DNA of 23,630 nt from a virus (IMGVR_UViG_2563366867_000003), one strand, 5' to 3'. Counted from the first letter of the stretch, positions 6,038-9,551 are shown. Program-made: numbers and translations. The notes: generated by a model not told the origin, from the letters alone.

Positions 6038-7975
6038 GTGACTCTTAAACGGGCCTGTTCCCTGCTGACGGTGAAATCCTTCAGTGAGGATGAACGGGTG
6101 ATCACCGGGATTGCGTCAACGCCTTCTCCGGATCGGGATGGTGACATCCTGGAGCCGGAGGGGGCGGAGTTTGGCAGTACGATCCCGTTTCTCTGGCAGC
6201 ATGACCATTCCCGCCCTGTAGGCCAGTGTACGGTGCGTCGGATCAGGGAAGGGCTGGAAATCACGGCAACACTGGTGAAGCCCGTACCGGATATGCCGTC
6301 GCAACTGGCTGCCCGGCTGGATGAGGCATGGGCTGCCATTAAGACCGGGCTGGTCAGGGGGCTTTCTGTGGGCTTCCGGCCCCATGAATACACTTATCTG
6401 GACGGAGGCGGACTGCATTTTCTGCGCTGGGAGCTGATGGAGGTGTCTGCCGTCACCGTGCCCGCGAATGCGGAATGCACCATCCAGACCATTAAATCTT
6501 TCGACCGCCCGTTTTCTGCCGCGTCCGGCAACCGGAAACCGGTGGTGAAAATCGCATCTTCTGCCGGCGCTTCGGCACAGTCAATAACCTCTTTTCATAA
6601 GGAAAAGTCAGCAATGAATACTGGTGAACAGATTAAAAGTTTTGAAAACAAGCGTGCGGCGCTGGCAGCCTCCCTTGAGGAGGTCATGACCAAAGCCGCA
6701 GAGGAAGGCCGCACACTGGATGTGGAAGAGGAAGAGCACTACGACAACACCGCAGCGGAAATCCGTCAGGTGGATGCGCACCTGAAGCGTCTGCGTGAAC
6801 TGGAAACCAGTAAGGCCGCCACGGCACAGCCGGTGAAACAGGCCGGTAACGGGAATGTGGCCACGGTGGCTTCAGCGCCGGTGATCCGTGTTGAGCAGAA
6901 ACTGGAGAAGGGGATTGGTTTCGCCCGCTTTGCCAAATCACTGGCCGCGGCTAAAGGTGTCCGCTCTGAAGCCCTGGAAGTGGCCCGTCGTCAGTATCCG
7001 GATGACAGCCGTCTGCATCATGTCCTGAAGTCGGCGGTGGGGGCAGGGACCACCACGGACCCACAGTGGGCAGGCAGCCTGTCTGAATATCAGGAATATG
7101 CGCAGGACTTTATTGATTATCTGCGTCCGCAGACCATTATCGGGCGATTTGGTCATGGCGGGATCCCGGCACTTCGTCAGGTGCCGTTCAATATTCGCGT
7201 GCATGCCCAGGTGTCCGGTGGTGCTGCCGGCTGGGTGGGGCAGGGTAAGGCCAGACCCCTGACGAAGTTTGATTTTGAATCCATCACCTTCAGTCATGCG
7301 AAGGTGGCGGCTATTGCGGTACTGACGGAAGAGCTGATCCGTTTTTCCAGTCCTGCCGCCGATGCGCTGGTCCGTAATGCACTGGCGGAAGCGGTGGTGG
7401 CGCGTCTGGACACAGACTTTGTGGACCCGAAAAAAGCGGCGGTGGCCGATGTTTCCCCTGCGTCCATCACCCATGATGTGAAGGGCACGGCATCAACCGG
7501 TAACCCGGATACGGATGCGGAAGCCGCGTTTGGTCAGTTTGTGGCAGCAAACCTGCAGCCCACCGGTGCGGTCTGGCTGATGTCCAGCACAAATGCCCTG
7601 GCGCTGTCCATGCGTAAAAATGCGCTGGGTCAGAAGGAATATCCGGACATGACCCTGCTTGGCGGCACCTTCCAGGGCCTGCCGGTGATTGTCTCCCAGT
7701 ACGTGGGTGACCAGCTGGTGCTGGTGAATGCGCCGGATATTTATCTGGCTGATGACGGCGGTGTGGCGGTGGATATGTCCCGTGAAGCGTCACTGGAGAT
7801 GCAGTCTGAACCGACCAGCGACAGCAGCACACCGTCACCGGTGGAGCTGGTCTCCATGTTCCAGACCGGCAGCGTGGCCATCCGTGCGGAGCGCTGGATC
7901 AACTGGCGTCGTCGCCGTACCGCGGCAGTGGCGGTGATCACCGGTGTGAACTACGGAACTGCGTCCGGCGGCTGA
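6038..7975 (+). CDS. fused prohead protease / major capsid protein (HK97 fold)
   Basis: N-terminal ~200 aa resemble HK97-type prohead protease (VITGIASTPSPDRDGDILEPEGAEF...LWQHDHSRPVGQ); after a linker the same frame continues into a major-capsid-like sequence with coiled-coil N-terminus (MNTGEQIKSFENKRAALAASLEEVM...) and no stop between. Start set to GTG 6038 after CAGGAGG RBS; the listed ATG 5954 would read through the upstream hairpin. Confidence 0.8.
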   Translation: MTLKRACSLLTVKSFSEDERVITGIASTPSPDRDGDILEPEGAEFGSTIPFLWQHDHSRPVGQCTVRRIREGLEITATLVKPVPDMPSQLAARLDEAWAAIKTGLVRGLSVGFRPHEYTYLDGGGLHFLRWELMEVSAVTVPANAECTIQTIKSFDRPFSAASGNRKPVVKIASSAGASAQSITSFHKEKSAMNTGEQIKSFENKRAALAASLEEVMTKAAEEGRTLDVEEEEHYDNTAAEIRQVDAHLKRLRELETSKAATAQPVKQAGNGNVATVASAPVIRVEQKLEKGIGFARFAKSLAAAKGVRSEALEVARRQYPDDSRLHHVLKSAVGAGTTTDPQWAGSLSEYQEYAQDFIDYLRPQTIIGRFGHGGIPALRQVPFNIRVHAQVSGGAAGWVGQGKARPLTKFDFESITFSHAKVAAIAVLTEELIRFSSPAADALVRNALAEAVVARLDTDFVDPKKAAVADVSPASITHDVKGTASTGNPDTDAEAAFGQFVAANLQPTGAVWLMSSTNALALSMRKNALGQKEYPDMTLLGGTFQGLPVIVSQYVGDQLVLVNAPDIYLADDGGVAVDMSREASLEMQSEPTSDSSTPSPVELVSMFQTGSVAIRAERWINWRRRRTAAVAVITGVNYGTASGG

Positions 7976-8019
7976 GTCTGATGAGGAGGGCGGGAGGCGC
8001 GAGCTTCCCGCAGTAACTG

Positions 8020-8241
8020 ATGGCAAAAATCCAGTATCTGCAGGGCACGCATGATGCCCGGGCCGGGGATATCCGTGATGTGGCACAGCCGTGTGCGGAG
8101 GTGCTGGTTCGCCTGGGGAAGGCGGAGTACATCACAGTGCGACGTCCGGCAGGTCAGAAAAAGAAACGTGATGCGGAGCATGGCGAATGTGGAACCTTTT
8201 GCGGCGAACCCGAAAAAACCAGAAATCAGGACGTGATGTAA
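8020..8241 (+). CDS. hypothetical small protein in the capsid-portal gap (uncertain)
   Basis: 73-aa ORF in the 211-bp gap between capsid stop and portal start, overlapping the portal start by 55 nt; weak RBS; no family recognised. Confidence 0.25.
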   Translation: MAKIQYLQGTHDARAGDIRDVAQPCAEVLVRLGKAEYITVRRPAGQKKKRDAEHGECGTFCGEPEKTRNQDVM

Positions 8242-9551
8242 AAGAGGTGGGCTGGACCAGCCTGTTTCAGGCGGTGGCTGAGCCTTTTGCCGGTGCCTGG
8301 CAGCAGGGTGTGAAAGCCGATCCGGAAACCGTTTTGTCCTTTCACGCGGTGTTTTCTTGCATTTCGCTGATATCCCAGGATATCGCCAAAATGCGGCTGC
8401 GCCTGATGCAGACCGATACACAGGGGATCCGCCGTGAAAAACGACAGGGGGATATTGCCCGTCTCTGTCGTCGTCCCAATGCACAGCAGAATCGTATCCA
8501 GTTTTTTGAACTGTGGCTGAACGCCAAACTGCGTCACGGCAATACGGTGGTGTTGAAAATCCGTAACTCCCGGGGGCAGATCAAAGAACTGCGTATTCTG
8601 GACTGGAGCCGGGTTGAACCTCTGGTGGCGGATGACGGCGAGGTGTTCTATCGCATTACACCGGACCGGAACTGCGGGATCACTGAGGCGGTGACGGTGC
8701 CTGCCAGGGAAGTGATCCACGACCGGTTTAACTGTTTTTTTCATCCGCTTGTGGGGCTGCCGCCGGTGTATGCTGCCGGGCTGGCGGCCACGCAGGGGCA
8801 TCATATTCAGGAAAATTCGACGTCTTTTTTCAGAAATGGCGGCAGGCCGTCCGGGGTGATTGAGATCCCCGGCAGTATTACGGAAGAAAATGCGAAAAAA
8901 CTGAAGAGCAACTGGGACAGCGGGTATACAGGCGAAAATGCGGGGAAAACGGCCATTCTGAGCAACGGGGTAAAATACAACCCCACGACGTTTTCACCGG
9001 TGGATGCGCAGACGGTGGAACAACTGAAGATGACCGCTGAAATTGTCTGTTCGGTGTTCCGTGTCCCGGCCTACAAGATTGGCGTGGGACAACCGCCTTC
9101 CAGTGACAACGTGGAGGCGCTGGAGCAGCAGTATTATTCCCAGTGCCTGCAGACGCTGATTGAGTCCATTGAACTGTTACTGGATGAGGCGCTGGAAACG
9201 GGGGAAAACGAGAGTACAGAATTTGATGTCACCACGCTGCTGAGAATGGACAGTGAGCGGCGCATGAAAACGCTGGGGGATGCGGTGAAAAATACGCTTC
9301 TCACGCCCAATGAGGCCCGTAAACGGGAGAACCTGCCGCCTCTGGCCGGCGGTGATGCACTGTATCTTCAGCAGCAGAACTACAGTCTGGAGGCGCTGTC
9401 CCGTCGTGATGCCCGTGAGGATCCGTTCGCGTCGACCGGGAAAACAGTTTCATCACAGCTGCCTGACGGCGCATCTGACGGTAATAAGGCCATAAGCGAA
9501 ACAGAGCGTGATGCGGTGAAGGCGATGTTCAGGGGGATACTGCGAAAATGA
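8187..9551 (+). CDS. portal protein (HK97 family)
   Basis: 454 aa; basic N-terminus and AVFSCISLISQDIAKMRLRLMQ region typical of HK97-type portals; GGAG RBS; stop overlaps the next start (ATGA). Confidence 0.85.
   Translation: MWNLLRRTRKNQKSGRDVKEVGWTSLFQAVAEPFAGAWQQGVKADPETVLSFHAVFSCISLISQDIAKMRLRLMQTDTQGIRREKRQGDIARLCRRPNAQQNRIQFFELWLNAKLRHGNTVVLKIRNSRGQIKELRILDWSRVEPLVADDGEVFYRITPDRNCGITEAVTVPAREVIHDRFNCFFHPLVGLPPVYAAGLAATQGHHIQENSTSFFRNGGRPSGVIEIPGSITEENAKKLKSNWDSGYTGENAGKTAILSNGVKYNPTTFSPVDAQTVEQLKMTAEIVCSVFRVPAYKIGVGQPPSSDNVEALEQQYYSQCLQTLIESIELLLDEALETGENESTEFDVTTLLRMDSERRMKTLGDAVKNTLLTPNEARKRENLPPLAGGDALYLQQQNYSLEALSRRDAREDPFASTGKTVSSQLPDGASDGNKAISETERDAVKAMFRGILRK

Follow-up and report, generated by a model that had tools for sequence, protein, structure and literature searches.

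In phage HK97 the prohead protease enters the procapsid non-covalently, with the tail of the protease bound to the delta domain of the capsid protein. In Pseudomonas phage PAJU2, a single protein, gp03 (UniProt P85500), is annotated both as 'prohead protease fused capsid protein' and as 'major head protein', under the UniRef name 'Capsid polyprotein'; its autocatalytic cleavage was proposed in 2009 (Uchiyama et al. 2009, Virus Res 139:131), as quoted in PMC8306868. An analogous fusion has been described in Salmonella phage Gifsy-2 (Effantin et al. 2010, Virology 402:355, as cited in PMC12315714). The gene considered here is contained in a 23,630-nucleotide (nt) stretch of viral DNA, IMGVR_UViG_2563366867_000003, referred to in its whole length as the window, and encodes a protease, a scaffold-like segment and a capsid protein in one reading frame. 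Judged from its sequence, it is a known member of the capsid-polyprotein family of PAJU2 and the Shiga-toxin (Stx) phages, found in lambdoid Escherichia coli prophages. Both the fusion and the gene order are already known, and the arrangement is not rare. The only element not found described in the literature searched, whose coverage left out the PAJU2 and Gifsy-2 papers, so that a prior mention is possible, is a signal for translation start inside the gene.

A proposed internal start in the fusion gene

The reading frame is open without interruption from GTG 6038 to TGA 7973-7975 and codes for 645 amino acids (aa), followed by the stop. An in-frame ATG is found within it at position 6614, corresponding to Met193 and missed in the original prediction, which was made from the DNA of the window alone. 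Met193 aligns exactly with the capsid start Met of Burkholderia phage FUBS1 and Moraxella phage Mcat6, where protease and capsid are encoded by split genes, and free-standing capsid representatives start at positions equivalent to query residues 193-197. An in-frame ATG occupies the position of Met193 in 27 of 27 fused loci. The comparison was extended to 130 fused representatives, pairwise less than 50% identical: a Met is located 5-8 residues before the column equivalent to Gln198 in 110 of them, and within 13 residues of it in 122, against a background of 28% of arbitrary 14-residue windows containing any Met. Most of the eight fusions without a nearby Met have a Val at the homologous spot, consistent with a change from ATG to GTG. 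In a four-phage alignment (A2), Met193 is the sole invariant column between Gly177 and Gln198.

A Shine-Dalgarno-like motif is located 6-10 nt upstream of the internal ATG in four aligned phage examples. The motif AAGGA is present in 14 of the 15 enterobacterial fusion open reading frames (ORFs) of the set, Pantoea having CAGGA, while AGGAGG or AAGGAG, with predicted energies of -8 to -12 kcal/mol, is found in PAJU2, Rhizobium, Brevundimonas, Haematobacter, Halopseudomonas and Mesorhizobium. For 8 of the 12 non-enteric loci, the internal motif ranks within the top 0-0.3% of positions in the ORF. The residues around it vary (HKEKSA, KKGNNT, QEGND, RKESR), and AAGGA encodes Lys-Glu in the window and Lys-Gly in other enterobacterial loci; since the motif is kept while the encoded residues differ, conservation appears to act on the nucleotides, not on the peptide.

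Predicted RNA structure is low at the same place: in 19 of 22 loci, the 60 nt around the ATG belong to the least structured 5% of windows along the ORF; the GC content is 0.35 around the internal ATG of the window, compared to 0.59 for the gene. Taken on these alignments, start codon, motif and low RNA structure all show signs of selection inside the fusions. The protein clusters (50% identity) in which internal-start signals were recognized number at least 130 and derive from Proteobacteria as well as from metagenome-assembled genomes (MAGs) of Binatia and Vicinamibacterales. An in-frame internal start codon with a ribosome-binding motif, as in a pair of the lambda C/Nu3 type, is found within the longer gene.

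A second in-frame ATG, at position 6686 (Met217) after GAGGAGG, was evaluated and discarded: only 2 nt separate it from this motif, which the Salmonella relative lacks.

Nested products or a single polyprotein

The favoured reading, to which a probability of about 65% is assigned, is that of a head-shell gene from which two nested products are made, the protease-capsid fusion of 69 kDa and a capsid precursor of 48 kDa. We infer that ATG 6614 is used as a second translation start. Initiation at GTG 6038 would produce the 69.2-kDa fusion and initiation at ATG 6614 the 48.4-kDa scaffold-capsid precursor; both products would co-assemble on the portal to form the procapsid, and the protease would reach its interior through a covalent tie to some of the shell subunits. 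After assembly the protease would remove itself, the linker and the helical scaffold segment, leaving a mature capsid protein of roughly 38-41 kDa; its N-terminus would be expected to fall at about residues 262 to 290. It is somewhat more probable than the contrary that the nested gene pair is a family-wide trait, in which the full-length protein would be a dedicated delivery subunit and the ratio of the two starts would set the protease dose per head.

Of the two starts in the window, the upstream one combines a stronger motif with GTG, the internal one a weaker motif with ATG. A conserved internal ATG, accompanied by a motif and located exactly at the start of separate capsid genes, suggests an additional supply of free capsid precursor and makes a strict 1:1 ratio less likely. 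The 1:1 stoichiometry before processing that the original prediction derived from the fusion is, on this ground, probably wrong.

Such a ratio is the core of the principal alternative, a pure polyprotein, where the 645-aa protein is the only product, protease and shell subunits are present 1:1, autoproteolysis frees the capsid protein and the internal ATG and motif are a relic or functionless. This is held to be unlikely, with several points nonetheless on its side. The upstream Shine-Dalgarno motif is the stronger one in enterics, and the internal motif of the window is modest. A single autocleaved polyprotein is the model proposed for PAJU2, in the form in which PMC8306868 quotes it. By a rough estimate, about 415 copies of a 21-kDa protease plus linker, corresponding to approximately 9 MDa, would fit in a T=7 procapsid, so that geometry is compatible with the 1:1 model. 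On the other hand, a leftover start would be unlikely to stay Met or Val in nearly all of the 130 lineages with the linker diverged beyond alignment, and a relic is not expected to keep a purine-rich motif built from different residues, or to coincide with a trough of RNA structure.

The age of the fusion bears on the same question. A rough neighbor-joining tree, built on the capsid part, groups the fusions in a single clade with the split forms at its base, plus one fused/split sister pair. The fusion appears old on this tree, and a leftover start within one old clade with basal split forms would have had ample time to decay. The sister pair comes from Mesorhizobium, where M. jarvisii (L023) has the fused form and sp. 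CA8 (L036) the split one, with a protease ORF which stops 94 nt before the capsid ATG; fusion and fission thus seemingly both occur on short timescales.

Several observations weigh against two nested products. The enterobacterial internal motif is modest, AAGGA being predicted at -5.4 to -6.2 kcal/mol, weaker than the upstream GGAGG, and ranks within the top 4% to 19% of the in-ORF background, mostly at about 10%; the ORFs with AAGGA are placed between the top 4% and 13%. The internal motif would be masked in part by ribosomes that started at 6038. Support values are absent from the tree, and the Mesorhizobium pair shows that the state can flip, so that retention of the signal could partly reflect recent history. 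The PAJU2 proposal, as quoted in PMC8306868, is one of a single polyprotein cleaved autocatalytically. Finally, the capsid body lacks a confident structural model: its predicted local distance difference test score (pLDDT) was mostly below 50, with a maximum of about 56, in both AlphaFold2 (AF2) runs, which used a shallow alignment of 23 sequences closely related to one another.

Upstream start and spacer

The features of the locus are reported in Table 1.

Table 1. Features of the capsid-polyprotein locus and of its neighbours. Positions are counted from the first letter of the window.
Feature	Position	Strand	Basis or remark
Large terminase subunit (TerL) gene	4312..5973	+	Pfam TerL_ATPase and TerL_nuclease; RefSeq and phage-record annotation
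Terminator-like hairpin (GAACCGC/GCGGTTT), then T run	5998..6025	+	Consensus scan and sequence reading; putative
Shine-Dalgarno AGGAGG for the full-length product	6027..6032	+	5 nt 5' of GTG 6038
Protease-scaffold-capsid fusion gene ('capsid polyprotein')	6038..7975	+	645 aa, 69.2 kDa
HK97-type (S78) prohead serine protease domain, predicted	6038..6460	+	aa 1 to ~141
Predicted catalytic His55	6200-6202	+	
Predicted catalytic Ser110	6365-6367	+	
Linker, non-conserved, low-confidence	6461..6613	+	aa 142-192
Shine-Dalgarno-like AAGGA	6599..6603	+	10 nt before ATG 6614
In-frame ATG (Met193), proposed internal start	6614..6616	+	453-aa, 48.4-kDa scaffold-capsid precursor
Helix hairpin of two long helices, scaffold-like 'delta' segment	6620..6823	+	aa 195-262
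HK97-family capsid body	6905..7972	+	~aa 290-645; Pfam PF05065, profile search
Small gene, 73 aa	8020..8241	+	phrog_829, E 7e-39; overlaps portal start by 55 nt
Portal protein gene	8187..9551	+	Pfam PF04860, E 7e-82; phrog_12 and phrog_2271 matches
Gene for 407-aa protein	9548-10771	+	Putative head decoration or fibre protein

The duplex formed by the upstream AGGAGG with the anti-Shine-Dalgarno sequence is predicted at -10.3 kcal/mol. A longer frame of 673 aa, starting from ATG 5954, was rejected: it is not preceded by a Shine-Dalgarno motif, and it runs over the end of terL and the terminator-like hairpin. In relatives, the fusion protein starts at the counterpart of 6038, where GGAGG precedes an ATG, which also counts against ATG 5954. 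The start regions of 25 related fusion loci (locus L025 excluded) were compared; all 25 have an ATG with a GGAGG-type motif at the homologous position or close to it, while the window has GTG.

The hairpin is contained in the 64-nt spacer which separates terL from the fusion gene. In relatives a T-rich tract is found at its place, just 5' of GGAGG, and in HK97 a putative terminator is likewise located directly upstream of the protease gene. The fusion protein corresponds to RefSeq WP_000173054.1, labelled 'phage major capsid protein', the same 645-aa protein being encoded by E. coli ABU 83972.

Parts of the fusion protein

For the N-terminal half, a Pfam match to Peptidase_S78 (PF04586) covers aa 48-152 with 34.9 bits, over a cut-off of 21, the phrog_80 family 'head maturation protease' matches with E 5e-42, and a prohead-protease (assemblin-like) fold was recognized. 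His55 and Ser110 align with His65 and Ser114 of HK97 gp4, which we take to be the HK97 catalytic residues, and are kept in 130 of 131 aligned sequences. By these matches the N-terminal domain is an HK97-type prohead serine protease, predicted to cleave the capsid precursor. One could suppose, on the moderate Pfam score of this half, that it is an inactive relic of a protease, by now only an additional scaffold; this is highly improbable, as the two residues are retained almost throughout the family and no other head protease gene was recognized in the annotated head module, from terL to the tail genes.

The following linker corresponds to the C-terminal tail of the separate proteases of the split relatives. 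It is weakly conserved in both alignments used (A1 and A2); A2 has 12 invariant columns among aa 142-192, none of them beyond Gly177. A structure prediction of the linker, suggested as a check in the original prediction, gave pLDDT values below 50 across aa 142-193, with 10-residue blocks averaging 25-28 between aa 151 and 190 (AF2). Immediately downstream, aa 195-262 are modelled as two long helices, with pLDDT of about 80 in both AF2 models. This hairpin resembles the scaffold-like 'delta' segment of HK97-type capsid proteins, and its removal at maturation would be expected.

The remainder of the protein matches Phage_capsid (PF05065) at aa 386-635, with 54.7 bits against a cut-off of 24.2. 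A profile built on the family detects solved capsid proteins, namely 9d9w (E 1.3e-15), 9gyi (E 2.4e-7) and 8gta (E 3.4e-4); the profile was needed for these hits, a search of the PDB with the single sequence giving only a weak match (E 0.0055). No significant similarity to HK97 gp5 was detected by BLASTP for the capsid part (E 0.33). By profile, the C-terminal remainder is an HK97-family capsid protein. The mean pLDDT of the AF2 models is 44 for the full-length protein and 42 for residues 193-645, and only the protease domain and the helix hairpin are usable. The profile matches, both above their thresholds, bear out the view that one uninterrupted frame joins an N-terminal protease to a C-terminal capsid protein.

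Diffusion of the gene

The window segment 5900-9600 was used as query for DNA identity. At least 15 of the complete E. coli genomes listed, among them that of ABU 83972, contain this 3.7-kb region with 100% identity, and the module is present in 1250 of 5426 complete E. coli genomes, with up to 7 copies per genome. A single 90%-identity cluster of the 645-aa protein contains 9916 member sequences. The region is also found, at 90-99% identity, in 93 phage records, mostly from long-tailed Stx1a, Stx2c and Stx2a phages and prophage relatives; 'major head protein/prohead protease' is the name given to the gene in the records of BP-4795, YYZ-2008 and WGPS6. Full-length protein matches were obtained with Salmonella phage FSL SP-016 (78%), Pseudomonas phage PAJU2 (48%) and Rhizobium phage RHph_X2_26 (49%), and the fused frame is retained in 26 further loci, of 39-78% identity, from distant bacteria and phages.

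The phrog_617 family, which covers aa 1-639 (E 7e-259), is a full-length family for this fusion architecture, and PHROGs also includes a family named 'major head and protease protein'. An exhaustive search of 50%-identity cluster representatives detected 1166 relatives at E<=1e-30; among the best 150 representatives, about 128 are full-length fusions of 630-680 residues. Three database proteins, P0002 (1079 aa), P0243 (1094 aa) and P0250 (1091 aa), have about 440 additional N-terminal residues before the fusion, including a TerL ATPase domain in P0002; they are either terminase-protease-capsid run-ons or gene-calling artefacts.

Gene order in fused and split relatives

Gene order was compared in 43 related loci, taken from phage records and from a scan in which each bacterial species was represented by a single genome. 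Wherever the flanking sequence sufficed, the order was terminase, protease and capsid (fused or not), portal, usually followed by a homologue of the 407-aa protein and by a head-tail adaptor. The small ORF which precedes the portal gene is part of this clade-wide order in fused and split forms alike. Fused forms with this order are found in Enterobacterales, Pseudomonas, Halopseudomonas, Rhizobiaceae, Brevundimonas, Haematobacter, Enterovirga and Binatia and Vicinamibacterales MAGs; split forms with the same order in Burkholderia phage FUBS1, Moraxella phages, Psychrobacter, Acinetobacter and a Pseudomonadales MAG. The split relatives include protease and capsid genes overlapping by 4 nt or 13 nt apart. 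In another split relative, Stenotrophomonas phage SOVA965 (L007 4182-5587), the capsid gene is annotated as two overlapping coding sequences, which suggests a frameshift or a sequencing error in the record.

As far as these loci indicate, the location of the protease-capsid block before the portal is an old, stable trait of the clade, independent of fusion. The original prediction had correctly placed the fusion gene between the large terminase and portal genes, and had regarded this as a reversal of the usual order; the block does lie on the other side of the portal with respect to HK97, but the arrangement is shared by a large annotated clade and is not rare. The synteny comparison that it had proposed as a check returned the same order wherever the flanks sufficed. 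No evidence was found that the position of the block relative to the portal has any mechanistic consequence.

A last explanation, that sequencing error or a pseudogenising mutation in a decayed prophage removed a stop between separate protease and capsid genes, is effectively refuted already: one small change could indeed join genes overlapping by 4 nt or separated by 13 nt, and the capsid gene of SOVA965 is broken, but the identical DNA in many independently finished genomes and the frame kept in the 26 further loci speak strongly against an artefact, as do the size of the 9916-member cluster and the presence of the same gene in the isolated phages PAJU2, FSL SP-016 and RHph_X2_26 and in the named Stx phages. 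The concern about a frameshift, raised together with the original prediction, is thereby dispelled.

Neighbouring genes

The gap between capsid and portal genes (7976-8186) measures 211 nt, as originally stated; the 73-aa ORF that it holds had been described as weak, which does not agree with its phrog_829 match. Homologues 48-56% identical were detected by tblastn at the same place in 14 related enterobacterial loci (11 prophages, plus FSL SP-016). RefSeq and phage records both annotate the ORF, and PAJU2, FUBS1 and Mcat6 have ORFs of comparable length at that place. It exceeds the phrog_829 profile by 10 residues and, on these matches, is a member of a conserved phage family, not a chance ORF.

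In the RefSeq annotation (PGAP) of ABU 83972, the portal gene and the next gene, coding for the 407-aa protein, are called one 'frameshifted' portal pseudogene (window 8187-10771; L046 8788-11372); the 'portal' family phrog_2271, of 859 positions, likewise extends over the two genes. The two frames share the four letters ATGA at 9548-9551 of the window. Of the 14 enterobacterial loci that contain both the portal gene and a 407-aa homologue, 12 have them adjoining at a single coordinate, and the two are separately annotated in PAJU2 and FSL SP-016; with frames that abut and separate annotation in relatives, the pseudogene call is probably wrong. The 407-aa protein, labelled 'portal protein' in several phage records, contains 3.3 tandem copies of a 162-bp (54-aa) unit, 92% identical, at 9773-10305, and its C-terminus has a weak match to carbohydrate-binding module 5/12; it may be a head decoration or a fibre. 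Its homologues (29-59% identity) follow the portal gene in most fused relatives.

Positions 1-4315 of the window correspond to a lambdoid late region, with a SASA-family esterase and a lysis cassette (holin, lysozyme, spanin-like); an HNH endonuclease directly precedes the gene of the small terminase, an arrangement also seen in HK97-like cos phages. This part was read from the 100% DNA identity of segment 5900-9600 and the flanking annotation of the ABU 83972 prophage.

Implications

Fusion and gene order are standard features of a common head module of E. coli prophages, Shiga-toxin phages included, and in this respect knowledge is not changed. The existence of natural fused and split versions of one protease-capsid pair offers a useful system for the question of how a maturation protease enters the procapsid. 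If the internal start is used, current annotations miss a second product of one of the commonest E. coli prophage genes, and models of head assembly for such phages should not assume one protease per subunit. The locus is in any case poorly described: the labels of the gene vary ('major capsid protein', 'prohead protease', 'capsid and scaffold'), and portal and 407-aa genes figure as a RefSeq pseudogene.

Comparison with known systems

PAJU2 gp03 belongs to the same family over its full length (48-50% identity, 100% coverage), with the same order of parts. The neighbours also correspond, as TerS, TerL, the fusion, small ORFs, portal, a homologue of the 407-aa protein and an adaptor follow each other in PAJU2, and its internal Met is preceded by AGGAGG at the homologous place. 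PAJU2 differs in its host and in the rest of the genome; its protein is 22 aa longer, and two small ORFs, rather than the single one of the window, precede the portal gene. Stx phages BP-4795, YYZ-2008 and Stx2a_WGPS2/WGPS6 and related E. coli prophages have essentially the same gene (95-98% protein identity) in the same head module. The copy in the window is an allele of E. coli ABU 83972 and other strains, with 100% DNA identity and no substantive difference from the Stx-phage gene.

The likeness to Gifsy-2, as far as its description is quoted, consists in a protease, a scaffold-like middle and a capsid protein contained in one gene of a lambdoid enterobacterial phage. The Gifsy-2 fusion reportedly uses a ClpP-like protease. 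In the window fusion protein, Pfam detected S78 only, and neither ClpP nor the S49 family; as the protease family differs, the gene is not a member of the Gifsy-2 type, and the two fusions would be analogous and independent. A 'major capsid and protease fusion protein' is an annotation class also in Arthrobacter phage clusters AN, AU and AW, Microbacterium cluster EE and Rhodobacter cluster RcC; the likeness is one of annotation, and the hosts of these actinobacteriophages and Rhodobacter phages differ from that of the window. A protease-scaffold fusion reported in a preprint on the cyclic-oligonucleotide-based antiphage signalling system (CBASS) was set aside, as it concerns another phage, outside this fusion family.

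HK97 gp4 and gp5 share with the locus the protease family and the catalytic residues, a helical N-terminal scaffold-like segment and a capsid body of the same Pfam family. In HK97, protease and capsid are encoded by two separate genes after the portal gene (terminase, portal, protease, capsid), while the block of the window is on the other side of the portal; delivery of the protease, which would be covalent in the window system, takes place in HK97 through binding of the protease tail. For the proposed pair of products a parallel is found in phage lambda, where C and Nu3 are nested in-frame genes. The principle would be the same: the protease is part of the long product, and a short product with its own start in the same frame has the C-terminal part in common with it, resulting in a ratio other than 1:1. 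In lambda the two products share the scaffold, capsid protein E being encoded by a separate gene; in the window the shared part would include both scaffold and capsid, with the internal start predicted from the conserved signal.

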